This document shows, in pieces, positions 13,009-38,004 of a stretch of 64,000 nucleotides of DNA (the stretch's first letter is position 1; each line of letters starts with the position of its first letter). Position numbers and translations under genes: made by a program. Source of the DNA: Escherichia coli (GTDB taxonomy: Bacteria; Pseudomonadota; Gammaproteobacteria; Enterobacterales; Enterobacteriaceae); assembly GCF_024298765.1 (NCBI RefSeq), contig NZ_CP101210.1; one strand, written 5' to 3'. The notes beneath the pieces were generated by a model. It saw only the letters and a list, made by a program, of their open reading frames with translations. It was not told the origin of the DNA and did not search any database.

Positions 13009-13020
13009 AATTCATATAAA

Positions 13021-13050: not shown

Positions 13051-13205
13051 TAGGACGCCACGATTTAAGCGTCCTGCCGCCAAATCAATTCTACCGAACT
13101 CAACCAGACTCCCCCCACATCAACCCCATTGTGTGGGTATAATTGCGGGTATACCCCAGTTCGACAGAATTTGTACCCTCTTTAACGCATTCAGAAGGCT
13201 GAACT

Positions 13206-17900: not shown

Positions 17901-18435
17901 TGCGCTCTCTTTTGATTATAAAGAGCGTAAGGATTTAAAAACCGCCGGGACCAAAATCTACACACTTCATGGTGTGGAGCAACATGATAATTTCCTGAAT
18001 CAGACATTTGAAAATACCAGTAAACACATCACGATAGTTTCTCCATGGCTGACCTGGCAAAGGCTGGAGCAAACCGGTTTTCTTGATTCCATGATTGCGG
18101 CGTGTTCACGTGGAATTAACGTCACGATAGTCACTGACAGAAGCTACAACACTGAACATAATGATTTTGAGAAGCGAAAAGAGAAGCAGCAGAACTTTAA
18201 AGCGGCGCTGGAGAAACTGAATGCGCTGGGTATTGCTACAAAGCTGGTAAACCGTGTTCATAGCAAAATTGTTATTGGTGATGATGGTTTGCTGTGCGTG
18301 GGATCGTTCAACTGGTTTAGTGCGACACGGGAAGCGCGATATGAACGATACGATACATCAATGGTTTATTGCGGTGATAACCTGAAGGGTGAGATTGAGG
18401 CTATTTATAATAGTCTTGAGAGGCGGCAGGTTTAG
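14920..18435 (+). CDS. large SF1 (Upf1/DNA2-like) helicase fused to C-terminal PLD-family (HKD) nuclease; candidate single-gene anti-phage defence protein (Mokosh type II-like)
   Basis: 1171-aa ORF; Walker A GPPGTGKT at 15802..15825; Walker B-like LIVDEAGQ; motif VI-like [17 protein letters not shown]-terminal HxKxxxxD motif HSKIVIGDD at 18259..18285; first cargo gene after integrase. Confidence 0.7.
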
Positions 18436-18543
18436 AGCAGGAATGGTGAGTAGCCATCTTACCGATCGTTTTCGAGCGTAAGATGGCTGAATGGAATGGC
18501 TATTATTGCACAGTCCTTAATTATAACATTCATACCGACATGA

Positions 18544-20043
18544 TTATCTTCTGTCCGGAAGAATCAGAGGCTGTGGTTTCAGACTGTCTGCCGGTACATT
18601 CCTGTCTCCGTTAAAAACAATAACGGGTTCATTATCTTCGTCTGTCAGCGGATTGAATGGCGGTATATTTTCAGTACGAATGCCGGTCAGCCACTGAAAA
18701 ATACCTGCGAAATGACGGGCACTGATTTTTCTGCTGACGGACTGATGAGACGTGATGTCACTGGCGGTAATAATCAGGGGAACGCTGTAGCCTCCTTGTA
18801 TATGGCCATCATGATGAACAGGATTAGCACTGTCGCTGACCGACAGACCATGGTCAGAAAAGTAAAGCATGGCAAAATGACGGGAGTGCCGGCGAAGGAT
18901 ACCATCAAGCTGACCGAGAAAGTTATCCAGTTTACTGATGCTGGCGAGGTAACAGGCAATCTTTCGGGGATACTGCTCCAGGTAATGATTCGGCCAGGAG
19001 TTAAGTCGGTCACACGGATTCGGATGAGAGCCAATCATGTGCAGGAATATCACCTTCGGAGAGGATTTATCCGCCAGTGCACGTTCTGTTTCCTGTAACA
19101 ACAACATGTCATCCGTTTTACGGGAAGCAAAGCTGCCTTTCTTGAGGAAAACGGTATGCTCCGCATCAGAAGCAATAACAGAGATGCGTGTATCATGCTC
19201 CCCCAGTTTTCCCTGATTGGATATCCACCATGTGCTGTATCCTGCTTTTGCTGCCAGCGCCACCACGTTGTTGCCGGAGTCAGGGTTCTGCTCATAGTCA
19301 TAAATCAGTGTCCGGCTCAGGGAAGGTACGGTACTGGCTGCTGCCGATGTATAGCCGTCAATAAATAAACCGGGAGCCGTATTCAGCCATGGTGTGGTTG
19401 GCACGGGATAGCCATATACCGACATATAATCCCTGCGCACACTCTCACCAGTAACGATAACAATCGTGTCATACAACGGTGTTCCCGGCAGGATTTTCCA
19501 GTTGTCAGCCCCGTGCTGACTCAGTTGTTTATAACGCTGCATTTCACGCAATGTGTCAGTTGTTCCCACAACAATTCCTTTAACCATCCGCAACGGCCAG
19601 CTGTTTACAGAGCATAATACGAACAGCAGCAGTGCCAGCCAGTTACGGTGACCGCGGTGGTGTGTCCGCCAGAAAATCACCATGAATACCAGAATCGCGG
19701 CACTGACCAGAAAATGATAAACAGGAATCATCCCGGTAAACTCTGCAGCCTCATCAGCCGTGGTCTGCAGCAACGCGACAATAAAACTGTTGTTGATTTT
19801 ACCGTACGTCATACCCGCAGGCGCATACAGTGCACAACAGAACAGAAATAACAGCGTTGTAATGGATGTGAGGGTATTTCTGTGTGCAAGGAGCAGAAGG
19901 AGAAACAGAAGCAGCACATTTCCTGTGGCATTCTTCTCAGTGTATCCGCATGCAATTGTGGTTATCACAGAAATAACAAAAAAGAATAAAAACAATAAAA
20001 TCCGGGGTGTGTCGCCCGGACAAAACAGTTTTCTGATATTCAT
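18544..20043 (-). CDS. phosphoethanolamine transferase / sulfatase-superfamily inner-membrane protein (EptA/MCR-like family)
   Basis: 499-aa ORF; N-terminal multi-TM region then periplasmic domain with VTGESVRRDYMSVYGYP (cf. GE[T/S]AR nucleophile motif of EptA/MCR), HMIGSHPNP and FSDHG metal-site motifs. Confidence 0.7.
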   Translation of the reverse strand: MNIRKLFCPGDTPRILLFLFFFVISVITTIACGYTEKNATGNVLLLFLLLLLAHRNTLTSITTLLFLFCCALYAPAGMTYGKINNSFIVALLQTTADEAAEFTGMIPVYHFLVSAAILVFMVIFWRTHHRGHRNWLALLLFVLCSVNSWPLRMVKGIVVGTTDTLREMQRYKQLSQHGADNWKILPGTPLYDTIVIVTGESVRRDYMSVYGYPVPTTPWLNTAPGLFIDGYTSAAASTVPSLSRTLIYDYEQNPDSGNNVVALAAKAGYSTWWISNQGKLGEHDTRISVIASDAEHTVFLKKGSFASRKTDDMLLLQETERALADKSSPKVIFLHMIGSHPNPCDRLNSWPNHYLEQYPRKIACYLASISKLDNFLGQLDGILRRHSRHFAMLYFSDHGLSVSDSANPVHHDGHIQGGYSVPLIITASDITSHQSVSRKISARHFAGIFQWLTGIRTENIPPFNPLTDEDNEPVIVFNGDRNVPADSLKPQPLILPDRR

Positions 20044-20224
20044 CGGAGTATATCGACAACATTATTATGAAGAGAACAGGATAATAAAAATCAGAAATTA
20101 TCTGTAAAACAGATAACAGACAACCCTGCAGCAATAGACTGCAGGGTGTTTCTGTTTAATTGCAGAAGATATACAATTATATTAATTACAGAATATTCGT
20201 GATTATCTCTCGGGAACAGTGTTG

Positions 20225-20965
20225 TCAGAAGTTATAAGTCACACCAAGCATGATGTCATGACTTTTAACATCAACTTCTGACTTATATTTATCGCCCCAC
20301 TCGTCCTTGTAACTCACACTGCTGTCACCTGCATCAAGATAGCGATAGCTGAGGTCCAGAGCGATATCCGGGGTTACGTCATAGCGGACACCCGCGCCAA
20401 GGTTCCATGCGAAGTTGTCAGCAGAGCCTGAACGTGACAACGATTCGCGACCACTGCTTCCGTACTCATAATCCCAGGTACTGATACCGGTTGTTTTCTG
20501 GTGAATTCTGGCGTAGCCAATCCCTGCAGATATCCAAGGTGTGAATGCGCTGTCATTCCGGAAGTCATAGTACGCATTCAGCATTAGTGTGTTGACTGAC
20601 ACCTCATTCTTCAGGTCATCACGCCAGTAACCACCTGACCAACTGTCTTTATCTACGTTATACTTCGAATCAGCTTTTCCACGAGCGTAAAACTCCAGTT
20701 CTGTACGAACCGGAATACTGAACTGCGGATAAAAATCATAACCAGCCGCGATACCACCACTGAATACCGTATCATGGTCATCGCCGCCTTTATACTTTGA
20801 CGTTTCTTCCTCATCTCCTGACAGGAAACGCTGGTCTGAAAGTGACACCACAGAGGTACCGGCTTTACCGGTCAGATAAAAACCGCTTTTACCTTCCTCA
20901 GCACCTGCATTTGCTGCAAATACACAGGCTGCGGCCACCACTGAAACAGCAAAAACCTTTTTCAT
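20225..20965 (-). CDS. outer-membrane beta-barrel protein (OmpA-like transmembrane barrel family)
   Basis: 246-aa ORF; Sec signal peptide MKKVFAVSVVAAACVFAANA; alternating amphipathic beta-strands; C-terminal aromatic residue (GVTYNF) typical of OMPs. Confidence 0.7.
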   Translation of the reverse strand: MKKVFAVSVVAAACVFAANAGAEEGKSGFYLTGKAGTSVVSLSDQRFLSGDEEETSKYKGGDDHDTVFSGGIAAGYDFYPQFSIPVRTELEFYARGKADSKYNVDKDSWSGGYWRDDLKNEVSVNTLMLNAYYDFRNDSAFTPWISAGIGYARIHQKTTGISTWDYEYGSSGRESLSRSGSADNFAWNLGAGVRYDVTPDIALDLSYRYLDAGDSSVSYKDEWGDKYKSEVDVKSHDIMLGVTYNF

Positions 20966-21452
20966 TTCAATTATCTCCGTTATTGCTCCGTTGCTGCAAG
21001 CAGTACTCAGTGCATTTTAAAACCCGCCATGCTATAGCCTCAATCGAATAAAATCGATCGAATCGATCGATGATATCGATCGTCATTAACCAGAAATTTT
21101 TATCGTATTCAGTCAGCACAGACACAACAAATGCATGCCATGCAGGCAGCCATGCCCCGTCGCGACAGATGGTAGCAGTGGGCTGGCGAAGAGCAGAATT
21201 AATAAAATTTGTTTATTCTGTCAGGAGATAAGGTGTCACCTGTTCATGAACACAATTAAGGAAGAGACATACATGAGCTGACTGGCAGTCCAGAGTGCAT
21301 GCGGTTACAAGCCGGAAAGGTGAACCGGTATAACCAGTGAGCAGAGTTTGTGAAGGGGGGATATAAAAAAGCCCACTGCATGGCTGCGGGTAAAGAGTCA
21401 GTTATTTCCGGCGTTTTTCAAGGTAGTTGTCGCCTGATGTAATAAAATTACG

Positions 21453-21790
21453 TTATGCCGCTTCTTTTTCTGGATTCAGATAAACTGCCTGAATGAGTTC
21501 CCAGTCACGCAACTGTTTGCTCCAGCGCTCAGGATGACGCTTGCGAGCTTCGCGATAAACTTTTTTTCTGGCTTCCAGTATTTGTGCATCAATTCCGCGA
21601 TGGCGTTCATCCGGAGTAACATACTTAATACCGCTGTGCTTGTGTTCCAGGTTGTACCATTACGTGAACTTGCTTAACCAACTTCTGGCTTCATCTATGG
21701 TTCGAAAACCATTCTCCGGCCACCATGAACAATACTTAATCGTCCGGAAGAGCGATTCGGAATAAAGAAGTGTTACTGGCAGTTCTTTCA
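21453..21790 (-). pseudogene. remnant of IS3-family transposase OrfB (C-terminal part, in-frame stop)
   Basis: Minus-strand translation gives ...GFRTIDEARSWLSKFT*WYNLEHKHSGIKYVTPDERHRGIDAQILEARKKVYREARKRHPERWS..., typical integrase-core C-terminus, interrupted by a stop; no intact ORF. Confidence 0.5.
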
Positions 21791-21820
21791 TCGCATCAGT
21801 GAAAACCAGCAGGGCACTGC

Positions 21821-22162
21821 TCACCAGAGCAACACAGGAAAGTGAACCCGAACAAAAGTTCCTGTACCATTTTCTCCCAGCAGACGTGAGGCTTGTTCCA
21901 GTGACGCTGGTATACGTCCCAGCCGGACATCAAGTGCGCCGATGGCTATTGCCTGAAATCGCATCGTACAGCAAATCACCAACAGGACACCGACAGACAT
22001 TAAAGGTAACCCCCTGTAATCCAGTAGTTCCGACAGCCAGCGGTCATTTAGGGAGTCAGAAAACCAATCGCCAGAATCGTGCCCGGAAAGGCATAACCCA
22101 GCGACGCCCCTCTCATCACACCGCGCCTGAACAGTGGCATAGCGTTGAGGAATTCCGGGCAT
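21821..22162 (-). pseudogene. possible fragment of an ABC-transporter permease gene
   Basis: 113-aa ORF contains permease-like EAA-loop-type segment (IPASLEQASRLLG) but is far too short and lacks context. Confidence 0.25.
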
Positions 22163-22291
22163 TCCAGACTACGAGCAGACTGACAAAAATTACGACAAAG
22201 CGTTGAAGGAAGCCAGCGCGCGGACTGACAGGACTTTACCATAAAAACACAGGCTAACCGCGCCTGCGTTTTTAATGACGGATAAACAGAA

Positions 22292-24271
22292 TCAGGTGCC
22301 GATTATGCCGCCGTCGGCTTTTACGATAACGACAGTTGAGGAGCGCGGACGACCAGCCTTATCGCCGTCAGGCCAGCTTGATACTGCCGTCGGATGCTGC
22401 GGATCGCTAAGCCCTTCGCTTGGCTCGCCAGGGTGCTGGATGTTAATAAACAGCGTCCGGTTATCCGGAGTGAACGCGATGCCGGTGATTTCGCAGCCGC
22501 GCGGGCCGGTCAGGAAGCGGCGGAACTCATTGGTACCGGGGATCGTCGCCACCATCTGGTTGTTGCCCATGCCTTTGTAATCTTTACTATTGATGGTTGA
22601 TGACGACACGTCGGTCTGGATCCATAGCACGCCGCGGTGATCGAAGCTCAGGCCATCGGCGCTGCCGAATTCCGCCCCCTTCATGCTGCCTTTGGTTTCC
22701 GGTTTGTCCGTATCGGTGCGACCGCCCATCACAAGAATATCCCAGGCAAACTGCAGCGCGGTCGGGTCACCGTTATGCTCCAACCAGTGAATGATGTGGC
22801 CGTAAACGTTTTTGGCGCGCGGGTTGGCCGCATCCACTGGCGCTTTTCCTTCCTTACCGCGATCGCTGTTGTTGGTGAGCGTGCAGTAAACGCTGCCGGC
22901 GTGATATGGATCGACCGCAATCCACTCCGGGCGGTCCATTTTAGTGGCCCCCACGGCGTCTGCCGCCAGACGGGTTTTAATCAACAGGTCGCCCTGGTTT
23001 TCAAACCCTTTACTGGCGTCGAGCCCATTTTGTCCGAACACCAGCGGTAGCCACTCGCCTTTGCCGTCGTCGTTAAATTTCGCCACGTACAGAGTGCCTT
23101 TTTCCAGCAGGTGCATGTTGGCTTTGCGATCCTGCGGGTTGAATTTTCCTTCCGAGACAAATTTATATATGTATTCGAATTTCTGGTCATCGCCCATATA
23201 GACCACAACGCGGTTATCCGGGGCAATTGTCACCGCTGCGCCTTCGTGTTTGATGCGACCAAGCGCGGTGTGCTTGCGCGGCACTGAATGCGGATCGTAT
23301 GGATCGATTTCCACCACCCAGCCGAAGCGGTTCGGCTCGTTCGGCGTGGCGTCGACGCTGAACCTTTTATCCACTTCGTTCCAGCGGTAAGAGTCGTCGC
23401 TCCCGCTGATACCGTAACGTTTTTCCAGCGGGTTCATCTCTGCTTTTTTTACGAAAATATCGGACCAGTTCTCTTCACACGTCAGATAGGTGCCCCACGG
23501 CGTAAATCCGTTGGCACAGTTCTGCATGGTGCCGAGAATGATTTCGCCTTTCGGATCGTCAACTGTTTGCATCAGTGGGTTATGCAGCGCCGGACCGGTG
23601 ATTTTCATCGGCGTGTTAACGGTGATGCGGCGTGCGAAAGATGACGGGCGCACCACTTCCCAGCCCAGGGGCACTTTTTTTACTTCAATGACCGACACGC
23701 CCATCGCGTTCTGGCCTTTAAGAGCTTTATCGGCGCTCCAGTTGGCATCGCCATCTTTAAACAGTAGACCGTTATCGATGTATTCATGGTTTATGGCAAG
23801 CAGGCCGTGATCGGAGCTGTTCCCGCCCTGCGGCAGGCTAAACCACGCCATGCCGTCGTGGTGCATCCCGGCCTGCGCCGCCTGTTCTTCCGTGGTGTTG
23901 CTACCGTCGGTTTTAAAAACCGGCAGATTTCCGGCAATCCCGGTGGCGTCGCCCCATTTGTAGAAGGGCTTCGCGATGTATCCTTCCGGCACGATAACGG
24001 TATCTTCCGTGGAAACCGGCAGGCTGGTGAAACCGAGCGTCGTCGCTTTGCCGAGGTTACCGCTTGCTTTGGAGACCACTTTCGCCAGCGCGTTTTCCTG
24101 TTTCAGCAGAAATGGGAACGCTGCCGCGGCACCGGCGACCGTGCCTGCCTGTAACAGACGGCGGCGTGACAAATAGACTTCCGCCACCTGCGAAAACGCG
24201 CGGTTATCGCTCGGGTTACTGATTTCTTCACTATGCTCACGTTTGAATAAAGTTTTTAACGGTCTGCCCAT
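22292..24271 (-). CDS. phoX: Tat-secreted PhoX-family alkaline phosphatase (DUF839-like)
   Basis: 659-aa ORF; twin-arginine signal (SRRRLLQAGTVAGAAAAF); overall resemblance to PhoX family by memory. Confidence 0.6.
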   Translation of the reverse strand: MGRPLKTLFKREHSEEISNPSDNRAFSQVAEVYLSRRRLLQAGTVAGAAAAFPFLLKQENALAKVVSKASGNLGKATTLGFTSLPVSTEDTVIVPEGYIAKPFYKWGDATGIAGNLPVFKTDGSNTTEEQAAQAGMHHDGMAWFSLPQGGNSSDHGLLAINHEYIDNGLLFKDGDANWSADKALKGQNAMGVSVIEVKKVPLGWEVVRPSSFARRITVNTPMKITGPALHNPLMQTVDDPKGEIILGTMQNCANGFTPWGTYLTCEENWSDIFVKKAEMNPLEKRYGISGSDDSYRWNEVDKRFSVDATPNEPNRFGWVVEIDPYDPHSVPRKHTALGRIKHEGAAVTIAPDNRVVVYMGDDQKFEYIYKFVSEGKFNPQDRKANMHLLEKGTLYVAKFNDDGKGEWLPLVFGQNGLDASKGFENQGDLLIKTRLAADAVGATKMDRPEWIAVDPYHAGSVYCTLTNNSDRGKEGKAPVDAANPRAKNVYGHIIHWLEHNGDPTALQFAWDILVMGGRTDTDKPETKGSMKGAEFGSADGLSFDHRGVLWIQTDVSSSTINSKDYKGMGNNQMVATIPGTNEFRRFLTGPRGCEITGIAFTPDNRTLFINIQHPGEPSEGLSDPQHPTAVSSWPDGDKAGRPRSSTVVIVKADGGIIGT

Positions 24272-24693
24272 TGCGGTTTCCTTTCAAAAAATCGATTTCA
24301 AGGGGAATCATTTTTATGCACGTGAGTCTACGGAAAGATTGTTACGGAAATATAACAATTGTCATAAAAAACCGGCGATAAAATCATCTATGGTCGGGAC
24401 GCGGTTTCAGGTATGATGTGAGGCTAGAATTCTGAACGCTCTCTTTTGTTGAGCATATATGGACGTCCCAGATGAGGCAAGTACTGGTTCGATGCGGTTT
24501 GCGACCATATATCCGGCGTCGTTAGTAGGTTCAATGACCTGCGCCATGATGTTATCCGGGCCCTATTTCCTAATCACTACACCGGTATTTGATTACCCAG
24601 GTCAACTTCAGACTGTTACAGGGGCGGTAGCCGTTATCTCATCAGTGAATGTAAACTCAGTTAAAAATATTTTCTATAACTTACTGTTTTTCT

Positions 24694-24877
24694 TTAATTC
24701 ATCACAACGGCCTTCTGCATATTAAAATCAATACTATCGCTCAAAACACGCCAGATGATTCTTGTCAGCTTATTCGCCAGCGCACCAGTGGTTTTCAGGA
24801 ACCCTCGACGGGCTTCCATCCTTTGCAGACAAATACTCAGACTGTCAGTGAGCTTTTTCACACAGCGCATTACAGAC
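24694..24877 (-). pseudogene. possible IS110-family transposase C-terminal remnant
   Basis: Segment GALANKLTRIIWRVL resembles conserved C-terminal motif of IS110-family transposases; ORF N-terminus runs into IS911 end so it is chimeric. Confidence 0.3.
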
Positions 24878-25252
24878 TGAAATGGCACACTGAATTTGGT
24901 CACCTGAACAGAGGTGATATGCTCACCTCAGAACAAGACTGGTGCCCTAATGAAAAAAAGAAATTTTAGCGCAGAGTTTAAACGCTAATCCGCCCAACTG
25001 GTTGTTGACCAGAACTATACGGTGGCAGATGCCGCCAAAGCTATGGATATCGGCCTTTCCACAATGACAAGATGGGTCAAACAACTGCGTGATGAGCGTC
25101 AGGGCAAAACACTAAAAGCCTCTCCGATGACACCAGAACAAATCGAAATACGTGAGCTGAGGAAAAAGCTACAACGCATTGAAATGGAGAATGAAATATT
25201 AAAAAGGCTACTGCACTCTTGATGTCAGCCTCCCTGAACAGTTCTCTATAAT
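24878..25252 (+). mobile_element. IS911 (IS3 family) left end with orfA, frameshifted and truncated
   Basis: Terminal sequence tgaaatggcacactgaatttggtcacctgaacagaggtg; orfA product matches remembered IS911 OrfA (MKKRNFSAEFKR...[37 protein letters not shown]...) but has a TAA after codon 12 and a one-A deletion in the A6G slippery run; element is cut about 25252. Confidence 0.75.
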
Positions 25253-25361
25253 AGGGAAACTCAGGACACGTTATCCTTTGGTCACTCTCTGTGTAGTGGA
25301 TCGGTAATTCAGGACACCTCATTTTCACTGTTAATGTTAAAAAGTGAAAATGAGGTGATGC

Positions 25362-26161
25362 ATGATCAAAACTCGTCGGACTAAACGTACCTTTTCCCCG
25401 GAGTTCAAGCTTGAAGCTATCGAACAGGTGGTTAAATACCAGCGTGATGTCAGAGAAGTCGCGCTGGCACTCGAGCTCAACCCTGACCATTTGCGTAAAT
25501 AGATACGGTTGTATAAGCAGGAACTTCAGGGTATTGAGCCCGCTGGTAATGCTATTACTCCTGAACAACGCTAAATTAAGCAGCTTAAAGCGCAGATAAA
25601 GCGCCCTGAGATGGAAAAAGAAATACTAAAGCAGGCTGCCGTGCTGATGAGCGAAATCCCCGGGGAAACTGTCGCGCTAATCACACAGCTGAAAGCAAAG
25701 TGGCCAGTGCGGGTTCTTTGTCATTTATTCGGTATTCACCGTAGCATTTATTACGCGCAGGTGAAGCGTCCTGTTAATGTGCAAAGAATTGAATTACGAA
25801 GTCGGGTGAGGGCTGTCCATGCTCTCAGTCGTGGCGCAGTCGGTAGCCGGGCAATCAGTCAGATGTTGCGCCATAGTGGCGTTGATGCAGGCCGGTGGCT
25901 GGCACGACGACTGATGCGGGAATGCGGGCTGACAAGTCGACAGCCAGTTAAACATCACTACCGGGTAAACGAAGACAAAAGTCCGCCATTGCCAAATTTA
26001 CTGAACCGGCAATTTCACCCCGCCGCACCAAACCGCGTCTGGTGCGGCAACATCAGTTTTATTCGCCTGCAGGACAAATGGTGTTATCTCGCACTCGTTG
26101 TTGATTTATATTCACGGCGGATTATCGGTTCAGCCCTCTCATTAACCGCTGATGCTGAGTT
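25362..26161 (+). mobile_element. IS3-family element fragment (orfA with two in-frame stops; orfB truncated by IS66 insertion)
   Basis: orfA-like MIKTRRTKRTFSPEFKLEAIEQVVKYQRDV...LNPDHLRK*; orfB-like 25611..26165 (WPVRVLCHLFGIHRSIYY...) stops at the IS66-family terminus at 26162. Confidence 0.6.
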
Positions 26162-26198
26162 GTAAGCGTACAGCGAGGGCCGTATTGACGGGGATGTG

Positions 26199-27461
26199 TT
26201 ATTCAGCTGGCAGTGCTATGCGCCACGGAAGCAGTTCGCTGACCCGGTTGACCGGCCAGTCTGCTATGACGCCAAGCACATGGCGAAGGTAACTTTCTGG
26301 ATCCACGTCATTCAGTTTGCACGTCCCTATCAGGCTGTACAGTAGCGCTCCCCGCTCACCACCATGGCCAGAGCCGAAGAACAGGAAGTTTTTACGACCC
26401 AGACTTACCGCCCGCAGGGCATTTTCAGCGATGTTGTTGTCGATTTCCACCCAGCCATCGTTCGCATAGTACGTCAGTGCCGGCCACTGGTTAAGTGCGT
26501 ACGCGAACGCCTTCGCCAACTCTGAGTGTCGCGACAGGGTCTTCATCTTTTCACGCAACCAGCTTTCCAGGGATTTCAACAGCGGTTTCGTTTTTCGCTG
26601 ACGTTCAGCAAGCCGCTGCTCTGCCGGCATTCCCCTTATATCCGCCTCTATGGCGTACAACTGACCGATCTGCTCCAGGGCTTCTTCCGTCAGTGCTGAC
26701 GGGATGCGGACGTGCACATCGTGGATCTTTCGGCGGGCATGAGCCCAGCAGGCAGCTTCCGTTATCCCACCATTGCGATACAGCTCGTTGAACCCGGCGT
26801 ACGCATCCGCTTGCAGCACACCGCTGAAGCAAGCAAGATGAGTCTGCGGATGGATGCCTTTTCTGTCCGGGCTGTAAGCGAACCACACTGCAGGTGCCAA
26901 CGCTGACCCGGCATTGCGGTCATCACGAACATACGCCCACAACCGCCCGGTCTTCGTCTTCTTATTACCCGGCATCAGTACCTGGACCGGGGTATCATCG
27001 GCATGGAGTTTGCCGTCAGTCATGACATAGCCATGAAGCGCCTCTTCCAGCGGAGACAGCAGCCGGCAGCATGCATCCACCCAGCCCGACAGCAGTGAAC
27101 GGCTCAGCTCCACACCTTGCCGGCCGTATATTTCTGACTGGCGATACAGCGGGGTGTGCTCTGCATACTTCGAGGTCAGCACGCGGGCCAGCAGCCCCGG
27201 TCCGGCGATACCCCGCTCGATGGGCCGCGAAGGTGCAGGTGCCTGCACGATGGCATCGCACTGAGTACAGGCATGTTTTTCCCGTACCGTCCGGATAACC
27301 CGGAAGGCGCTACGCATCAACTCCAGCTGTTCGGCGGTATCCTCGCCCAGATAGCTCAGTGAACCGCCGCAGTTCGGGCAGCACGGCGCCGCAGGCAACA
27401 GTCGCTTTTCGTCACGGGGTAGTGATTCAGGGAACGGCTTACGGATGCGGGTCTGACGCAA
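26199..27461 (-). CDS. tnpC: IS66-family transposase TnpC (C-terminal 420 aa; N-terminal part in another frame)
   Basis: Zn-finger-like CCPNCGG...CTQC and DDE region; N-terminal leucine-zipper part is in ORF 27356..27736, implying a frameshift. Confidence 0.7.
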
Positions 27462-27736
27462 CGGACGCTGTACTGCGGGTCATACACCCTACCAGTCAGC
27501 GTATCGCTCTCTTTCTGAAGCCGGTTCAGATCGGCTTCCATTTGTGCGATACGGCGGGAGACTTTTTCGGAACGACTGCCGAAGTTCATCCGGCGGAGTT
27601 TATCCAGCTGCGCCTGCAGATGGTCTATTTCGCGCTCCCGGTTGCTCAGCTTTTCCTGCAGGGCGTGGATCAGCGCTTCCTGTTCGGCCAGGCGCTGTTT
27701 CAGCAGGAAGATGTCGTCAGAAGAGATGTCGTTCAT
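27356..27736 (-). pseudogene. IS66 TnpC N-terminal segment (frameshifted relative to the C-terminal part)
   Basis: 126-aa ORF with coiled-coil region (LLKQRLAEQEALIHALQEKLSNREREIDHLQAQLDKLRR); overlaps 26199..27461 in a different frame. Confidence 0.6.
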
Positions 27737-27785
27737 AAGCCCGTATTTTACCGGGCTTATTCTGTGACAACCAGGATAAAGAGAT

Positions 27786-28133
27786 TTACAGCATGGTCAG
27801 GGAGGTCAGCAGCCGCTTAGGCTGTCGCCAGTCGATACCTTCCAGCAGCATCGCCAGCTGCGCCTGTGTAAGGAACACTTTGCCATCACGGGCTGACGGC
27901 CAGGCGAAGCGCCCACGCTCCAGCCGTTTGGTCAGGAGGCACAGTCCGTCACCGGTGGACCACAGCAGTTTAACCTGACTGCCGCTGCGGCCCCGGAAAA
28001 TGAAAACATGGCCGGACATGGGATCGTCTTTCAGCGCCGTCTGTACTTTCGCAGCCAGGCCGTTGAAGCCATTTCTCATATCGGTGATACCGGCAACCAG
28101 CCAAATTTTGGTCCCGGAAGGTAACGGGATCAT
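27786..28133 (-). CDS. tnpB: IS66-family Orf2 (TnpB)
   Basis: 115-aa ORF MIPLPSGTKIWLVAGITDMRNGFNGLAAKV; canonical IS66 Orf2. Confidence 0.85.
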   Translation of the reverse strand: MIPLPSGTKIWLVAGITDMRNGFNGLAAKVQTALKDDPMSGHVFIFRGRSGSQVKLLWSTGDGLCLLTKRLERGRFAWPSARDGKVFLTQAQLAMLLEGIDWRQPKRLLTSLTML

Positions 28134-28531
28134 CGCTTCAGTTCCTGTATCAGCAGAGTCAGGAGCTTTTCGCTGACATTGCCATTGAAGCGGAGCGTCC
28201 CGTGCCGGAACGTTACCTCACAGCTGATACTGAGGGTTTCCGGGTCCTCTGCGAGCGATTCTGGCTGTTCGGCAGCTGCATCGAGAGTCACAGGAAGTAG
28301 CTGGGGGCTCTCTGAAGAAGGTAATATCAGCTTTCCCTCGCGCCATTGTTGTCGCCATTTGAACAACAGATTGGCGTTAATGCCATTTTCAAGAGCAAGT
28401 TTTGAGATGTATATCCCGGGTTCACAGGAGGCAGCAACGAGCTGCTGTTTAAATTCGGGAGGATAATTAGGGCAGCCTTTTCGCCTGCCGGGAGTCACAT
28501 TTTTCTGCATATCTGACACTTTGGTTCCCAC
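28130..28531 (-). CDS. tnpA: IS66-family Orf1 (TnpA)
   Basis: 133-aa ORF overlapping tnpB by 4 nt; typical IS66 Orf1. Confidence 0.8.
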   Translation of the reverse strand: MGTKVSDMQKNVTPGRRKGCPNYPPEFKQQLVAASCEPGIYISKLALENGINANLLFKWRQQWREGKLILPSSESPQLLPVTLDAAAEQPESLAEDPETLSISCEVTFRHGTLRFNGNVSEKLLTLLIQELKR

Positions 28532-28587
28532 TACTTATTTGAAGTGCGCCCCAATAGTTAGACACCAGATCTGTAACTGAGGAGCGT

Positions 28588-28943
28588 ATGAGCAAATTTT
28601 CATTAGAATTCAAAAGGGAAGTATCAGAAAAATACCTGGAAGGTGAGCTGAGTTTGAAGTCTGTTGGAAAAATGTACAATATTGACCCCAGCACGGTAAG
28701 GAAATGGGCTTATGTTTACCGTAAGCACGGATTAAAAACACTGACTGGGCAAAAAAGACGTTATGACGATAACTTCAGATTGAATGTGGTCAGAGATGTT
28801 ATTGATAATTCTCTTTCTATAAGGGAAGCTGCAGTGAAGTATGGGATCCCTGCTTTTAACACCATATCCAAATGGATTAAAAAATACAGTGAGGTTGATT
28901 TTTCGATGAAGGGACAAAAGGAAGATTTGAGGCCGAAAACTCC
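28588..28943 (+). pseudogene. HTH transposase-like OrfA gene, 3-prime end replaced by IS1
   Basis: 125-aa ORF with two HTH-like segments; last codons are encoded by the IS1 terminal repeat beginning at 28944. Confidence 0.5.
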
Positions 28944-28998
28944 GGTGATGCTGCCAACTTACTGATTTAGTGTATGATGGTGTTTTTGAGGTGCTCCA

Positions 28999-29274
28999 GT
29001 GGCTTCTGTTTCTATCAGCTGTCCCTCCTGTTCAGCTACTGACGGGGTGGTGCGTAACGGCAAAAGCACCGCCGGACATCAGCGCTATCTCTGCTCTCAC
29101 TGCCGTAAAACATGGCAACTGCAGTTCACTTACACCGCTTCTCAACCCGGTACGCACCAGAAAATCATTGATATGGCCATGAATGGCGTTGGATGCCGGG
29201 CAACAGCCCGCATTATGGGCGTTGGCCTCAACACGATTTTACGTCACTTAAAAAACTCAGGCCGCAGTCGGTAA
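28999..29274 (+). CDS. insA: IS1 InsA
   Basis: 91-aa [46 protein letters not shown]... Confidence 0.95.
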
Positions 29275-29696
29275 CCTCGCGCATACAGCCGGGCAGTGAT
29301 GTGATTGTCTGCGCTGAAATGGACGAACAGTGGGGCTACGTCGGTGCTAAATCACGTCAGCGATGGCTGTTTTACGCGTATGACAGGATACGGAGGACGG
29401 TTGTGGCGCACGTCTTCGGTGAACGCACTCTGGCCACACTGGAGCGTCTTCTGAGCCTGCTGTCGGCCTTTGAGGTCGTGGTATAGATGACGGATGGCTG
29501 GCCGCTGTATGAATCACGCCTGAAGGGAAAGCTGCACGTTATCAGCAAGCGTTACACTCAGCGCATTGAGCGACATAATCTGAATCTGAGACAACATCTG
29601 GCAAGGCTGGGACGGAAGTTACTGTCGTTCTCAAAATCGGTGGAGTTGCATGACAAGGTCATCGGGCATTATCTGAACATAAAACACTATCAGTAA
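29193..29696 (+). pseudogene. insB: IS1 insB with internal stop (TAG at 29484..29486)
   Basis: insB reading frame split into 29193..29486 and 29487..29696; canonical ...FEVVMWMTDGW... reads ...FEVVV*MTDGW... here. Confidence 0.8.
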
Positions 29697-29837
29697 GTTG
29701 GAGTCATTACCTCCTCCCGAACTCAAAGCTATCATACAGATAATTACTGGTTAACCCTATATAGGGCATTTTAAAGTGTTGTGATCTTACCCAGCAATAG
29801 TGGACACGCGGCTAAGTGAGTAAACTCTCAGTCAGAG

Positions 29838-30143
29838 GTGACTCACAAGACAAAACAGTTTCAACCAGTAAAAAAACGTAAACAGCATTCGCCTGAATTT
29901 CTCAGTGAAGCCCTGAAACTTGCTGAACGCATCGGTGTTGCTGCCGCAGCCCGTGAACTCAGCCTGTATGAATCACAGCTCTATGCGTGGCGCAGCAAAC
30001 TGCAGCAACAAATGAGTTCGTCAGAGCGTGAAAGTGAACTGGCCGCTGAAAATGCCCGCCTGAAGCGGCAACTGGCGGAGCAGGCAGAGGAACTGGCTAT
30101 CCTCCAAAAGGCCGCGACATACTTTGCGAATCGTCTGAAATGA
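29838..30143 (+). CDS. IS3 OrfA (GTG start)
   Basis: 101-aa HTH/leucine-zipper ORF ...[42 protein letters not shown]... Confidence 0.85.
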
Positions 30144-31006
30144 AGTATGTCTTTATTGAAAAACATCAGGCTGAGTTCAGCATCAAAGCAATGTGCCGCG
30201 TGCTCCGGGTGGCCCGCAGCGGCTGGTATACGTGGTGTCAGCGGCGGACAAGGATAAGCACGCGTCAGCAGTTCCGCCAACACTGCGACAGCGTTGTCCT
30301 CGCGGCTTTTACCCGGTCAAAACAGCGTTACGGTGCCCCACGCCTGACGGATGAACTGCGTGCTCAGGGTTACCCCTTTAACGTAAAAACCGTGGCGGCA
30401 AGCCTGCGCCGTCAGGGACTGAGGGCAAAGGCCTCCCGGAAGTTCAGCCCGGTCAGCTACCGCGCACACGGCCTGCCTGTGTCAGAAAATCTGTTGGAGC
30501 AGGATTTTTACGCCAGTGGCCCGAACCAGAAGTGGGCAGGAGACATCACGTACTTACGTACAGATGAAGGCTGGCTGTATCTGGCAGTGGTCATTGACCT
30601 GTGGTCACGTGCCGTTATTGGCTGGTCAATGTCGCCACGCATGACGGCGCAACTGGCCTGCGATGCCCTGCAGATGGCGCTGTGGCGGCGTAAGAGGCCC
30701 CGGAACGTTATCGTTCACACGGACCGTGGAGGCCAGTACTGTTCAGCAGATTATCAGGCGCAACTGAAGCGGCATAATCTGCGTGGAAGTATGAGCGCAA
30801 AAGGTTGCTGCTACGATAATGCCTGCGTGGAAAGCTTCTTTCATTCGCTGAAAGTGGAATGTATCCATGGAGAACACTTTATCAGCCGGGAAATAATGCG
30901 GGCAACGGTGTTTAATTATATCGAATGTGATTACAATCGGTGGCGGCGGCACAGTTGGTGTGGCGGCCTCAGTCCGGAACAATTTGAAAACCAGAACCTC
31001 GCTTAG
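30140..31006 (+). CDS. IS3 OrfB (integrase core, DDE)
   Basis: 288-aa ORF with rve-type catalytic core (WAGDITYL...[15 protein letters not shown]...[10 protein letters not shown]...). Confidence 0.85.
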
Positions 31007-31036
31007 GCCTGTGTCCATATTACGTGGGTAGGATCA

Positions 31037-31685
31037 CTAAGCCAGGAATTAAGTCATTTAAAGATATTTCAAATTCACTGGCAATCGTATCTAATCCTTC
31101 CTTATCAATAGATTCAAGCCATAAATTATAATCAATAGGAAGAAGCAACGGATGAGTAAAGTTCAATCTATTTACTAAAGATGATTTAGTATACTCATCA
31201 TTACTTAGCTCTCCAATAAATTCATTATTTATAGAAACAGCATAGTTCTTTATATATGCTGCTCTGTGCAATTGTGACCATGCGATTTTAAACTCTACAT
31301 AAACCTTTTCAGTTTCATCTGCAATGTCTTTCATTTTTATAAAATGAATATCGAAAATATCACCAAGTTCTTCTAAATATGTTTTATATTCTACACCTAT
31401 TGTTTGTTCAGGATCGAAACCGATACCAATAGTAATTACATTATTCAGATCCCCATTATGGACTAGAGATCTAAATCCATCTATGCGCCTGTTCCCCATA
31501 GCTTCTAAATATATAGGATCACACTGCTCACGGTCTAATATTTGTTGAAGATAAAATAATGCAATTAAAATAGTAGTCTTGCCCGCGCTGTTTGGCCCCA
31601 ATAGTAATGTTACAGGTGCAAAATCAATTTCCTGCCGCTCTCTAACAGATCTGAAATTTTCAAGTACAAGTTTAGTTAATTTCAT
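31037..31685 (-). pseudogene. AAA/ABC-type ATPase gene (OLD/Abi-like N-terminus) truncated at 3-prime end by IS3
   Basis: N-terminus MKLTKLVLENFRSVRERQEIDFAPVTLLLGPNSAGKTT (Walker A); ORF runs into the IS3 terminus after about 215 codons. Confidence 0.65.
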
Positions 31686-31693
31686 AATGAACC

Positions 31694-32800
31694 TTACATG
31701 AAATATTTATTCGATAGGTTTGATGCTAAAAGTTGAAGTTGCATTGCGCTTTTATCATAAATGCTTAGTCCTTTTTTTATTTTTTTATAAATAATCTCAT
31801 ACTCATCTTGTAGATGCTTAGGTGGGATTAATATCTCTATATTCTGCAATTCCTGTGCATTAATATTAGCCATGCCAACAATACTTTTACACATATTCAT
31901 CAATGTGATTTTGCCATGGATGGAATTAAGATACCCTGAAATATAGTAGTTATTTCCGATAGAATTAGGTCTAACGCGGATTAAATATCCAGCAAATGCC
32001 ATAGGCCTGTCTTCTTCATACACAGCTGTTTTACCAACAAGTTCCTTACTGTTAGTACGATTGAAAAGAAGATCGCCTTCTTTAACCAAATATTTATCCT
32101 TTTCTTTTACACTGAGATCAAGATATTTTAAATCTGTAAAATCCCACCTACCTTGATATGTTATATTACCCATCCGTAATATAGGATATTCACCAGAATC
32201 AATAGAGGCTTTTGCTGAAGTTCCATAATTTACTGAATCAACCAAGTCGCGAATCGTTCCTTTCGGGAAACGATGTATGTTGTTTGCAGGAGTTCCAAAC
32301 ATCTCTAGAAACTTAGCCCGCAAAAAATCATCAGCCAGTTTGATGGCTTGTTCGCGTTTTTGGCGTATACCCTCAGCTTTATCGAGAAGATCCACAATTC
32401 GTTTCTGCTCTTCAAAAGGTGGTAATTTAATAAATGTATCATAGAGATCGTCTCTATTTAATCCAGGAATACTTGTGGTAATCGTTTTCTTAGTGAGATC
32501 AATTCCGCTCAGAATATAAAACAAGTATCGGAGATCTAACTTATTATTATCTTTGATCTCAACGTAATAAGCAGTATCAATGATCCAACCTCCGTCAGGA
32601 GCCCAGGTAATAGCACCAACGCTGCCTTTGCGACCAATAATTATCGTGGGATAGCTGCAAAGCGTTTTATCGTGGTTGCCGACAATTCCTGAACTACCAA
32701 AAACATGGACACTTCCATTCGATACTCGCTGATCAGCTTTTAATGCTTTTCCGTAGTGAACATTAATAACATCCCCTAACTTCACCATCGCCGAACTCAC
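31694..32800 (-). CDS. hsdS: type I restriction-modification specificity subunit HsdS
   Basis: 368-aa ORF overlapping hsdM stop by 4 nt; two target-recognition-domain-like halves; operon position. Confidence 0.8.
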   Translation of the reverse strand: MSSAMVKLGDVINVHYGKALKADQRVSNGSVHVFGSSGIVGNHDKTLCSYPTIIIGRKGSVGAITWAPDGGWIIDTAYYVEIKDNNKLDLRYLFYILSGIDLTKKTITTSIPGLNRDDLYDTFIKLPPFEEQKRIVDLLDKAEGIRQKREQAIKLADDFLRAKFLEMFGTPANNIHRFPKGTIRDLVDSVNYGTSAKASIDSGEYPILRMGNITYQGRWDFTDLKYLDLSVKEKDKYLVKEGDLLFNRTNSKELVGKTAVYEEDRPMAFAGYLIRVRPNSIGNNYYISGYLNSIHGKITLMNMCKSIVGMANINAQELQNIEILIPPKHLQDEYEIIYKKIKKGLSIYDKSAMQLQLLASNLSNKYFM

Positions 32801-34431
32801 AGCATACCCTCCAGCTCATCCAGATCCGCCAGAATTTCTTTTTCCAAATCTTTTAAGCGCTTTAGTATCACCTTCGGATCTTCATATTCCTCCGCCTGAT
32901 ACACCACTTCTTTATAACGATTGATAGAGAGATCGTATTTCTGCGCAGCAATATCCGCTTTCGGTACAACAAACGCCGCCTGCGTGCGATCTTTAAAATC
33001 AACGCCAGCATCAATCCCTTCCGGGTACTGCTGTTTAAGCAACGAGGCTAACTTCTCACCCATAAAGTTATCAACCGGTAGCCCGCGTAAAGTACGGTAA
33101 TGCTTCCAGCTTGCCAGCAGATGCGGCAGATCGTTGTCTTTTATCGGGTTGCGCTTATCATCCAGGCTGTAGCCATCATTTTGCAGATCGTAGAACCAGA
33201 CCTCATCCGTTTGACCGCCTTTGGTAAAGATCAGGATCGCCGTCGCCACGCCAGCGTAAGGTTTAAATACACCAGAAGGCAGATTGATCACCGCTTCCAG
33301 TTGGTTATCTTCCACCAGCGTTTTGCGAAGTGACTGGTGCGCCTTGCTGGAGCCAAACAGCACGCCCTGCGGCACGATAGTGGCACTGCGCCCGCCCACT
33401 TTCAGCATTTGCAGAATACGCGCCAGGAACAGCAGTTCGGTTTTTTTGGTTTTCACCATTGCCGACAACGTGGAGTCGATATCTTCCTCGTCCAGTGAAC
33501 CGGTAAAAGGCGGGTTCGCCAGAATCAGATTGAAAGCGTTTTTACTGGCCTGAGGGAAGTTAGTGCTGAAGCTCTGGCTCATGGTGTCCTGATAGTGAAT
33601 ATCCGGCGCTTCCACACCGTGCATAATCAGGTTCATAGCGGCGATACGCAGCATGGTGGTATCAAAATCGTAACCGTGGAACATATTGTTATCTACATGG
33701 TTACGCCACGGTGTCAGCAGATCGCCGGTAAAGATTTTTTGCTCTTCCAGTTCGCCACGTTCGTTGGTGCCAATCTCAGTATGGATGGATTCCAGCGAGC
33801 TGTACTTCTCCAGAAGATATTCATAGCTGGTTGCCAGAAAACCACCGGTGCCACAGGCGGGATCACAAATCGTCTCGCCGCGGGCCGGGTTCGGCTCCAT
33901 CATTTCAACCATCGTGCGGATAATGTGGCGCGGCGTGCGGAACTGACCGTTGATTCCGGCAGTGGTCAGCTTGCTTAACAGGTATTCGTAAAGGTCGCCT
34001 TTGGTGTCGCCACGATCCAGCGGCAGGTTTTTGATCACCTCAACCGCTTTGGTCAGTAATGACGGCTTAACAATCTCCAGACGAGCATCTTTCATAAAGT
34101 TGCCCAGCAGCGTCACCTTCGACGCATCGGCCTGGCCAAGCTGACGAAAATGCTGGAATACGCCATCGCGCACCACTTCCATCATCTCATCCGAGCCAAG
34201 ATTGCTATAGTGACTGAAACGGAACTCCTGCTGTTCTGGCGCAAAACGCGGTTTAAAATCAATTCCCGCGATTTGTTTACGCTTCTCGTCGCGTTGTTCC
34301 TGGGTATCCAGCATCCGGGAATACATCAGATAGGTGATCTGTTCGATTACGGTCAGCGGGTTGGTGATACCACCCACCCAGAAATCTTCCCACAGGCCGT
34401 CGATTTTACTTTTTAAGTCACCAGTGATCAT
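32797..34431 (-). CDS. hsdM: type I restriction-modification N6-adenine DNA methyltransferase HsdM
   Basis: 544-aa ORF; SAM-binding [10 protein letters not shown] and catalytic NPPF motifs. Confidence 0.9.
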
Positions 34432-34494
34432 TGTTAGCGTTTATATCCTGTTTTAAATACAAAAGCCCCGCTGTCGGGGCTTGTCATGTGCGTA

Positions 34495-37400
34495 TTATAC
34501 CGTCGCTGCGTCGGTCACAACACCCAGCTCTTCGACTATCTTTTGCAGGCGGGCGATCTGCTCTATATCCGGGAACACACCGGTAACGCCTTCGTTGTGG
34601 ATATGCGTAAAAGGCTGTTCAAAGAGCTGCCGCATTTCAATGGTGCCGTAATCGCGAATGTGGTTTTTCAGCAATGACAGGAAGCGCAGTTGTTGGCTGG
34701 TCAGACTGTTATCAGCGGCGAACTGAGCAAAGCGCACTTCCACCGCGTCGCTGTCCATCCCGATGATGGTACGCAAAAGTTTATCCAGGCTGGCAGTTGC
34801 CTGCGGATAGAACTCTTTCAGTGCCCGGATATCAACGTTGGGGTTCTGGATCAGCACCAGCTTCGCCAGCTCATCCAGCTCGTTTTGCGTGACTGGCTCA
34901 CCGTTGCGGATTTTCTTCAGCACCGGATTTTGCTGGAACAGCGGCTCCAACGCTCCCTGAACCTGCTGGCGATAGAGTTTGAAATCAATCGAGCGGATAT
35001 TAGTTTTGCGGGTCTCTGTCTGGATCAGGTTCGCATCTTCGGTAATATCTACCTGTATCGAACCAAATTTTGGCGTCGCGTCTTTTTCCATCAGGTGCAT
35101 GATGCCGCGCAGATGAATGCGGATATCTTCCAGCTCTTCCAGGCTGGCCTGCTTCCACCAGCCTAAATCACGAAGCTGATTGATCCGCGGTCCTTGCTGT
35201 TGGACCTGCGCCAAATGCGGCGGCAGGCGCTCCACTTTTTCGACGATGACCGGCCAGAGCACATCCAGCTCTTCCGGGTTGGTATAACGGGCAGTTTGCG
35301 CCGCCAGAATATCCATATCAAAGCGCATAGCGTCGCTTTGCCCGCGCACGTCCAGCCACTGCATCAGCGGGGCCAGGACAGATAGCAAATCCTGCTGTGT
35401 TTTCGGGGAAAGCTGGCGCAGCACTTTTTCATCGCTGTACTGCGCTTTTTGATGCCACTTTTCCTGGACGGCAATCGACTTTTCATCCAGTGCATTGATT
35501 TGCTCGCGTAGCTGGTGAGCAACTAAATCCACCGCCTGTTTGTCGAATTTACGTTGCGCAGCGGCCCCCAGCATAACCCACGCTTCGAAGCGTTTTTGTG
35601 CAAGCGATTTTGTCGCTGTGACTTCGGCCTCTTCGGTATGCAGTTCGTGATACTCAAAATTGCCCCAGTGATCGAAAATGCGGAATTTCTGTTTATCCAG
35701 AGGTTTGCCGTTATCGTCGTAACCGTACAACCCCGGACAGAGGCGCGTACCACGGCCAATCATCTGCCAGAACTTCACTTTTGATTTGACCGGTTTGGCA
35801 AAGACCAGATTCACAATTTCCGGGACATCAATACCGGTATCGAGCATGTCAACGGAGATAGCGATGGTCAGCTCTTTGTTGGTGCTTTCATCCAGCCCTT
35901 TAAAATCATCAATCAGTTGCTCGGCGCGGGGATCGTAATTGTCGATGACCTGGCAGAAGCGCCCGGCAAACTGCGGGTACATATCGTCGAATAATTCATT
36001 CAACAGCAGCGCGTGTTTGTGGTTACGGGCGAAAATGATGGTTTTACCTGGCAACTGGCCGTCCCGATCTTTCAGGCCATTTTCCATCAGGTTACGCAGG
36101 ATATAGCGGTTGGTGTCTTTGTTGTAGATCGCCTCATCCAGCGCCTTGCCATCAAACTCCAGCGTATTGGGATCTATGCCTTGTTCTTCCAGCTCGCGGA
36201 TTTGTGCGTCGCTTAATTTCTCCCGTTTGATGCCTTCGCGCAGGAATTCTGTGGTGTGCGTGACAACCTCATAGGGAACCAGATTGTTATCGGCGATGGC
36301 ATCTTCCAGGCTGTAGTTGGCGGTAGGAATACGTCCTTCACAACCAAACAGGCCGAAAGTGGTTTTACTCACCATGTCAATCGGCGTGGCCGTCAGGCCA
36401 ATCTGGAGGGCATCAAAATACTTAAACAGATCGCCGTAAACGTTGTAGATAGAGCGATGGGATTCATCGGCGATGATCAAATCGAAATAACCAACATCGA
36501 AATGGTCCATGATTTTCATCATACCAGGATAGGTGGCGATGTAGATCCTAGCATTCTGCCTGTCTGCTTTTTTCGATTTCCCGACCACATACAGCGGCTC
36601 ATTGGTGAATTGATTAAAGGCATTCGCCGCCTGTTTACGTAGTTCCTTGCGGTCGCAAAGAAACAGGACGCGTTTTACCCAGCGGGCATCAATCATCAGT
36701 TTGCTTAGCGCTATTGCCACGCGGGTTTTGCCTGTACCCGTAGCCTGAACAATTAGCGATTGCCGGTATTTGTTGGTAAACCGCTCGCTGACACGGGCAA
36801 TGGTTTCAAGCTGGTACAAACGTCCGGCAACGGCCTTACCTTCGTTATCTTTTACGTGCGGCACACTGTTCAGCGGAAGACGGGTTTCACGCTGTTGAAT
36901 AAGATATTGCAGGCTTTCCTTGCTGTAGAAGCCAAACACCCGACGCGGGGGATAACCATGAGTTTTATGGTCATCCCACAGCCAGATATCATAGCCGTTG
37001 GTGTAGAAGATGATCGGACGCTGGCCGTATTCTTTTTCCAGCCAGTCTGCATACAGCCGGGCCTGAATTCGTCCTTGCTCGGCATTGACGCTGGTTTTTT
37101 TTGCTTCCACCACCGCCAGCGGTTTGTGTGCCTCATCCCACAAGACATAGTCCGCATAACCGTCTCCGGTCGCGGTAGGTTGTTCTTTAACGGGATGTTC
37201 CTGCGTAACCTGATCGGTATTTTTAAGGCCTTCGCCTACATTCCAGTCAGCAGCAAGCAGGCGAGAGTCAATCAGGCGACGGCGGGTTTCCGCTTCATCA
37301 ATAGAGAGAATATCGGCAACATGCTGGTTACGCGCTCTGGCTTCATTCAGGCGTTGAGTGAGGTGTTCGGCCTTTTCCTGTTCTTGCTGTAGTGCGCGTT

Positions 37401-37911
37401 GCAGCGCCAGTTCGCGCTCACGGCTTTCATCCTGAGCCCTGATTGCATCTTCCAGACGTTTTTCATCTGCACGACCTGAAGATTGTGTTAATGGAGGGAG
37501 TGTAAATTTGGGGCAGTCATCAACATTACCGTGGGCGTAGCGAACATACAGCCAAATTCCCAACAAATACGCTTCTTTGAGCAGCCAGTAAGTATCTTTA
37601 GCTTTGATACGTCCGCCGTGCGCGGCACGGTTGCCATGGATACGCAGCGCATCCATTTTCATGATGATGGCTTCCGGCATCATGCTGGTAAAGACATCAG
37701 CATTCATTAAATCGTAAAGATTAGCCTTAATACCTTCCGGCAACCGCTCCTGACGATACAACCAGCGCACCATCAATTCGGTGTAGTTGCGCAGCTTGAC
37801 CAGACAGCTTTCCGGATCGGAGTGAACATAGCGTTCCGCCATACACGCGAGTTCAGCCAGTTCCGGCCACTGGCTGCGCAACATTTCAAAATTGAGAGAC
37901 TGCTCCATCAA
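34495..37911 (-). CDS. hsdR: type I restriction enzyme endonuclease/helicase subunit HsdR
   Basis: 1138-aa ORF; PD-(D/E)xK-like segment (DYVLWD...VVEAKK), SF2 helicase motifs (ATGTGKT, DESH); upstream of hsdM on same strand. Confidence 0.9.
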   Translation of the reverse strand: MMEQSLNFEMLRSQWPELAELACMAERYVHSDPESCLVKLRNYTELMVRWLYRQERLPEGIKANLYDLMNADVFTSMMPEAIIMKMDALRIHGNRAAHGGRIKAKDTYWLLKEAYLLGIWLYVRYAHGNVDDCPKFTLPPLTQSSGRADEKRLEDAIRAQDESRERELALQRALQQEQEKAEHLTQRLNEARARNQHVADILSIDEAETRRRLIDSRLLAADWNVGEGLKNTDQVTQEHPVKEQPTATGDGYADYVLWDEAHKPLAVVEAKKTSVNAEQGRIQARLYADWLEKEYGQRPIIFYTNGYDIWLWDDHKTHGYPPRRVFGFYSKESLQYLIQQRETRLPLNSVPHVKDNEGKAVAGRLYQLETIARVSERFTNKYRQSLIVQATGTGKTRVAIALSKLMIDARWVKRVLFLCDRKELRKQAANAFNQFTNEPLYVVGKSKKADRQNARIYIATYPGMMKIMDHFDVGYFDLIIADESHRSIYNVYGDLFKYFDALQIGLTATPIDMVSKTTFGLFGCEGRIPTANYSLEDAIADNNLVPYEVVTHTTEFLREGIKREKLSDAQIRELEEQGIDPNTLEFDGKALDEAIYNKDTNRYILRNLMENGLKDRDGQLPGKTIIFARNHKHALLLNELFDDMYPQFAGRFCQVIDNYDPRAEQLIDDFKGLDESTNKELTIAISVDMLDTGIDVPEIVNLVFAKPVKSKVKFWQMIGRGTRLCPGLYGYDDNGKPLDKQKFRIFDHWGNFEYHELHTEEAEVTATKSLAQKRFEAWVMLGAAAQRKFDKQAVDLVAHQLREQINALDEKSIAVQEKWHQKAQYSDEKVLRQLSPKTQQDLLSVLAPLMQWLDVRGQSDAMRFDMDILAAQTARYTNPEELDVLWPVIVEKVERLPPHLAQVQQQGPRINQLRDLGWWKQASLEELEDIRIHLRGIMHLMEKDATPKFGSIQVDITEDANLIQTETRKTNIRSIDFKLYRQQVQGALEPLFQQNPVLKKIRNGEPVTQNELDELAKLVLIQNPNVDIRALKEFYPQATASLDKLLRTIIGMDSDAVEVRFAQFAADNSLTSQQLRFLSLLKNHIRDYGTIEMRQLFEQPFTHIHNEGVTGVFPDIEQIARLQKIVEELGVVTDAATV

Positions 37912-38004
37912 TCATCGCCTTATGTCGTGGATACAACAGCATTTCTGGAAAGAATATCACACTAATTTGGCCGACGAAGTGAGCCGGAAAGGGCGGAATT
38001 ACCA

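Follow-up and report, generated by a model that had tools for sequence, protein, structure and literature searches.

Elements of the IS66 family reportedly have a tnpABC organization in which tnpC encodes the transposase. According to a secondary description, the family is characterized by this three-gene layout and TnpC is a DDE transposase (PMC6778807), while in some Bacilli the leucine-zipper domain of the IS66 TnpC forms an independent ORF (PMC3971601). The member that concerns us here is ISEc8, a name that follows PGAP, where the features matched are labelled "IS66-like element ISEc8 family transposase". It is a very common IS66-family element, detected by megablast in 4214 of 5426 complete E. 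coli genomes, with plasmids also searched. Two intact copies, one from pB0017981_scFOS (L004, NZ_OQ534115.1) and one from pAPEC-O1-ColBM (L005, NC_009837.1), were used as references. Each is 2442 bp long, and perfect 8-bp target duplications, ATATCAGC and GTCTTAGG, surround them. Intact TnpC is encoded in one frame of 1539 nt (512 aa), represented by WP_000997962.1 in both reference copies and by WP_000997971.1 in strain B771 (L013).

The stretch of E. coli DNA analyzed here, 64,000 nt of contig NZ_CP101210.1 (the window), carries an element that is almost certainly a decayed ISEc8 copy lying in a nest of IS elements within a pheU genomic island. When the intact L004 copy was used as blastn query, its nt 62-2442 (2381 nt) aligned with window positions 28541..26162 at 99.75% identity, with five mismatches and one gap. 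The following parts of the copy were recognized:

26162..28541, minus strand: truncated copy of ISEc8 (IS66 family), equivalent to nt 62-2442 of the 2442-bp intact element
28130..28510, minus strand: tnpA, intact, 126 aa from the ATG chosen by PGAP (Pfam HTH_Tnp_1; NCBIfam IS66 TnpA, 93.9 bits against a cutoff of 74)
27786..28133, minus strand: tnpB, IS66 accessory protein, intact, 115 aa (Pfam TnpB_IS66, 131 bits; NCBIfam IS66_TnpB, 120 bits against a cutoff of 50)
26199..27736, minus strand: tnpC pseudogene, frameshifted, 1538 nt instead of 1539 (ORFs and alignment with the intact copies)
26162..26191, minus strand: right inverted repeat of ISEc8, reverse complement GTAAGCGTACAGC... (element-end alignment and repeat search)

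The genes are arranged on the minus strand in the order tnpA, tnpB, tnpC, that is, the accessory genes lie upstream of the transposase gene on the same strand, as is characteristic of the IS66 family. The tnpA product corresponds to WP_021572005.1 according to the annotation of a 100% identical DNA match, and the ORF finder extends its start to a GTG at 28531. TnpB is annotated as WP_000612591.1, and the sequence reads ATGA at 28130..28133, where the tnpB ATG and the tnpA stop codon overlap. The right inverted repeat agrees with the left repeat of the intact copies perfectly over the 13 terminal nucleotides and at about 22 of 30 positions overall. Between tnpB and tnpC (27735..27760, minus strand), a 9-bp stem-loop (AUAAGCCCG...CGGGCUUAU) was also observed, the 3′ arm of which includes the AU of the tnpC AUG and which is kept in intact ISEc8. 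The 66-nt stretch around it (27725..27790) has a folding energy of -19.1 kcal/mol (z = -3.19 versus shuffles). This structure might restrict the translation of tnpC or serve as a terminator.

The original prediction held that TnpC is represented by two parts, 27356..27736 and 26199..27461, which overlap in different frames, and both ORFs were found exactly so. The two frames and the lesion separating them are as follows:

27356..27736, minus strand: 5′ frame of tnpC, 126 aa (Pfam LZ_Tnp_IS66, 35 bits, residues 39-83)
26199..27461, minus strand: ORF of the 3′ frame of tnpC, 420 aa, with zinc finger, DDE and C-terminal domains; the frame itself is open over 26199..27479
27475..27476, minus strand: 1-nt deletion, GG to G, at ISEc8 nt 1127 and tnpC nt 261/262 (alignment with intact L004 and L005)

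The 5′ frame comprises native residues 1-87 (coiled coil/leucine zipper), which are followed by 39 out-of-frame residues and a TGA at 27358..27356. The 3′ ORF carries the domains expected of an IS66-family DDE transposase (Pfam DDE_Tnp_IS66, 357.5 bits; zf-IS66, 50.6; DDE_Tnp_IS66_C, 61.4; NCBIfam transpos_IS66, NF033517, 457 bits against a cutoff of 180), and tblastn showed that its frame, 27479..26202, is 100% identical to residues 87-512 of intact TnpC, the N-terminus being in the other frame. The ORFs overlap by 106 nt (27356..27461, frames -1 and -3), and this is where the frameshift had originally been placed. The frameshift proved to be genuine, but its real site is 27476/27475, 15 nt upstream of that interval. 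The overlap is merely a consequence of the upstream 1-nt deletion, a fixed feature of the sequence in which chance plays no part. Alignment with intact IS66-family tnpC, a check proposed along with the original prediction, revealed a single 1539-nt frame in the reference, from which the window gene lacks one G. The intact copies read GTATGACCCGGCAGTACAG where the window reads GTATGACCCGCAGTACAG, and this is the sole gap within the shared part of the elements. In its immediate context, the deletion converts CCCGGCAG to CCCGCAG, and the codons of Pro87/Ala88 change from CCG GCA to CCG CAG. Re-insertion of one G restored a 512-aa ORF without internal stop, which is identical to the TnpC of B771 and differs from WP_000997962.1 solely by Q72R. 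The uninterrupted 512-aa frame that marks an active (autonomous) ISEc8 is absent from the window copy.

On the favoured reading, the spontaneous loss of one G from the GG pair at tnpC nt 261/262 shifts the frame after codon 87, and translation from the native ATG would then yield an 87-residue leucine-zipper fragment extended by 39 nonsense residues up to the stop codon. The zinc-finger, DDE and C-terminal part (residues 87-512) would be left in the -1 frame without a usable start. A start codon scan of the 3′ frame for an in-frame start with a Shine–Dalgarno sequence upstream of the zinc finger found none. The first possible start is a TTG at 27461, which lacks a Shine–Dalgarno sequence, and the first ATG follows only at 27317, past the first CxxC of the zinc finger, thus independent translation of the catalytic ORF is unlikely. 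As the frame shifts after codon 87 and the 3′ part has no usable start, no full-length transposase would be expected. The original claim that the frameshift inactivates the transposase is supported, as a well-grounded inference from the sequence.

The window copy has a second defect, since it lacks ISEc8 nt 1-61 and with them the left inverted repeat (GTAAGCGTACAGCC...). A search of the whole window for this repeat, allowing up to three mismatches, gave no match, so of the two terminal inverted repeats (GTAAGCG...) typical of IS66 elements only the right one, ending at 26162, is found. Other IS sequences flank the copy on both sides:

28541..28965, plus strand: left end of another IS (TGAAGTGCGCCCC..., IS3-family-like), in place of ISEc8 nt 1-61 (alignment and ORFs)
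28588..28965, plus strand: orfA-like HTH ORF of that IS (ORF and profile matches)
25611..26165, plus strand: IS3-family transposase fragment adjoining the right end of ISEc8 (NCBIfam transpos_IS3, 151 bits, below the cutoff of 160)
28999..29696: IS1A, beyond the IS that adjoins the left side of ISEc8
29838..31006: further IS3-family element with programmed frameshift, beyond IS1A

FORC_082 and Ecol_AZ159, which have the same junction, retain the left inverted repeat, while among the top hits only XB2, CH4804 and GPEC60-33-648 have lost it as in the window. DDE transposition generally requires two ends. Since one end is missing, the window copy would be immobile even if transposase were supplied by another copy; that is, once the left repeat had been lost to the adjacent IS, mobilization in trans would no longer be possible. 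No 8-bp target-site duplication was recognized either. Copies at the window's junction read GTTCGTCA versus AACTCAGC, and in the window copy the left end needed for this comparison is missing. Because the junction is without target duplication, the flanks were probably rearranged after insertion. The IS3 fragment on the right side covers profile positions 73-259 of 369 and is annotated as IS3 family transposase WP_000409994.1. IS3-family orfA and orfB fragments lie here at 25022..25502 and 25611..26165, and the reading frame of the 184-aa orfB fragment continues into the ISEc8 right inverted repeat. Altogether, at least five IS elements or fragments are nested between about 24400 and 31006.

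The single-frame tnpC is clearly the norm, because the intact 62-mer at the lesion site occurs exactly in 4161 of 4509 matching E. coli records, while the deleted 61-mer centred on the lesion occurs in only 42 of 4474. The original prediction had named one observation that would speak against it, reference tnpC genes with the same two-frame organization, and these counts show that this is not the organization of ISEc8. The deletion-bearing records are mostly chromosomes in which ISEc8 adjoins the IS3-family fragment of the window, and the deletion was also found in other settings: in IncK2/Z-type plasmids (L006), at the cob genes of BEN2908 (L007, NZ_LR740776.1 2073026-2079086) and in AR_0085 (L009), where the left flank is a different one. 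The linked G at nt 1081 is present in all of these other-context copies. The occurrence of deletion copies in several genomic contexts could be taken as a sign that the defective variant is still mobile. However, target-site duplications were sought around the deletion-bearing copies L002, L006 and L009 and none was found, and the BEN2908 copy corresponds to ISEc8 with the G deletion only up to about nt 1579, where it continues as a diverged IS66 relative, distinguished by over 100 substitutions and by a variant form of the right inverted repeat. This structure indicates a mosaic formed by recombination between different IS66-family elements. Spread by transposition is less likely on these grounds, and homologous recombination between IS copies appears to be the more likely route. 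The same allele has suffered further lesions in other strains, namely a 33-bp deletion of ISEc8 nt 1509-1541 in APEC 102026 (L008) and additional 1-bp deletions at nt 2255 and nt 2248 (Ecol_AZ159, L003, and AR_0085, L009), which fits progressive neutral decay.

The original prediction had left the choice between a frameshift and a sequencing error. If the G were missing only through an error of sequencing or assembly, the real gene would be intact, and two observations are in line with this: single-base indels are the commonest type of assembly error, and a few strains with the same junction have GG. Such an error is nevertheless very improbable here. The 42 records with the exact deleted 61-mer are spread over many laboratories, hosts and countries, the G deletion and the window's right-hand junction occur together in more than 30 independent chromosomes, and PGAP labels tnpC as "frameshifted" in every junction-sharing deletion record inspected. 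Moreover, the lesion site is a mere GG pair and not a long homopolymer, and the ISEc8 segment of the window (26150..28600) is 100% identical to three independent assemblies. Of the two options, the true mutation is favoured by the identical deletion in dozens of independent assemblies, and the deletion is very likely a real, vertically inherited allele, neither an error nor a normal two-frame organization, as judged from these comparisons. The strains with GG also bear on its origin. The 121-nt junction of the right repeat and the IS3 fragment is present in 37 E. coli genomes, and most of these copies are deleted, but B771 and EcE.ESBL.COL (L014) have the same junction together with GG and an annotated intact 512-aa TnpC, and both carry the window's linked G allele at nt 1081. 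Since same-junction strains still carry the intact gene, the deletion probably occurred only after the copy had come to lie at this junction, and the simplest history is that an intact copy lay there and the G was lost in one sub-lineage.

Another reading is that the split gene serves a purpose through separate products: a leucine-zipper protein on its own, which might regulate or inhibit the other copies of ISEc8, a catalytic fragment, or both. The separate leucine-zipper ORF of some Bacilli (PMC3971601) provides a precedent, the break falls directly after the zipper domain as delimited by Pfam, and many strains and contexts have kept the allele. There is nevertheless very little chance that this is the case. 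The catalytic frame has no Shine–Dalgarno-supported start ahead of the zinc finger, the upstream product would carry the 39-residue nonsense tail, the window copy is without its left inverted repeat, and the erosion of the same allele elsewhere by the 33-bp and additional 1-bp deletions suggests neutrality over selection. It is likewise highly doubtful that the allele expresses a leucine-zipper TnpC fragment that dampens the transposition of intact ISEc8 in the same cell, in the manner of truncated-transposase inhibitors, though such an activity would help to explain the presence of the allele in several chromosomal and plasmid contexts.

Finally, it is extremely improbable that the two-frame layout is functional and full-length TnpC is made by programmed -1 ribosomal frameshifting, as in IS3 and IS1, or by transcriptional slippage: the downstream frame does lie at -1 relative to the upstream one, the direction used by IS3 and IS1, and the zone where the frames could be rejoined is 122 nt long, but no X_XXY_YYZ heptamer was found in this zone (27479..27358), where the only runs are AAAA (27409) and CCCC (27419), about 99% of ISEc8-bearing records are single-frame, a slip downstream of the lesion would swap native residues for out-of-frame sequence, and PGAP, which marks the adjacent IS3 and IS1 genes as having programmed frameshifts, says only "frameshifted" here. 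Programmed -1 frameshifting was rejected because no convincing heptamer or homopolymer run occurs in the zone.

The wider surroundings identify the window as a genomic island at pheU, because 8787..14468 holds dcuA, dsbD and yjdC/dicD, then a tRNA-Phe gene (12933..13008) and a P4-type integrase gene (13206..14468). Judging by annotated relatives, the cargo includes a PhoX phosphatase, a phosphoethanolamine transferase, a type I restriction-modification system, a cdiA fragment and microcin H47 genes. In XB2, a nearly identical island lies beside yqgA, that is, in the pheV position, and in CH4804 the integrase is beside a gene that PGAP annotates as tRNA-Ser, next to an SPI-7-type element; collinearity with the window is partial in both cases: XB2, the sequence of which contains a gap, matches 12885..53281, and CH4804 matches 12959..35398. 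The cdiA of the window (38337..41801) is a 3′ fragment only, with a 1154-aa ORF, while in XB2 cdiA is full-length (9.7 kb) and accompanied by cdiB. At about 41755..41760, the window lacks about 9.4 kb that XB2 contains.

The frameshifted tnpC is a routine pseudogene that is already flagged in public annotation. For annotation, it follows that this region should be described as one tnpC pseudogene in a truncated, immobile ISEc8 remnant, and not as two genes. The shared deletion and the IS junctions could serve as markers for lineages of the pheU/pheV-type island in avian and extraintestinal pathogenic E. coli, and the allele series leading from the intact gene through the 1-nt deletion to further deletions and loss of an end repeat illustrates the stepwise decay of an IS.

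Compared with the described systems, the window copy is closest to intact ISEc8 of pAPEC-O1-ColBM and pB0017981_scFOS, with which it shares the tnpA-tnpB-tnpC order, an identical TnpB and the same right inverted repeat, but it lacks one G at nt 1127, nt 1-61 and an identifiable target-site duplication. FORC_082, Ecol_AZ159, XB2 and CH4804 have both the right junction of the window and a frameshifted tnpC. The IS66 and IS679 prototypes (Han et al. 2001, J Bacteriol 183:4296; Gourbeyre et al. 2010) resemble intact ISEc8 in their tnpABC genes, DDE TnpC, GTAAGCG repeats and 8-bp target duplications. They are, however, different elements, and the window copy is a defective ISEc8 derivative rather than a new member of the family. 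The orfA-orfB genes of IS3 and IS1 are, like the split tnpC, two overlapping frames of which the downstream one is at -1, but the layout of the split tnpC comes without a slippery heptamer and is not a conserved feature of the copies, nor does its annotation call it programmed, as is done for the neighbouring IS3 and IS1A genes. In the IS66 elements of some Bacilli (PMC3971601), the zipper and catalytic parts are separated at about the same domain boundary as in the window tnpC; there the split is the normal layout, whereas in ISEc8 it is a rare 1-nt deletion allele of a single-frame element.
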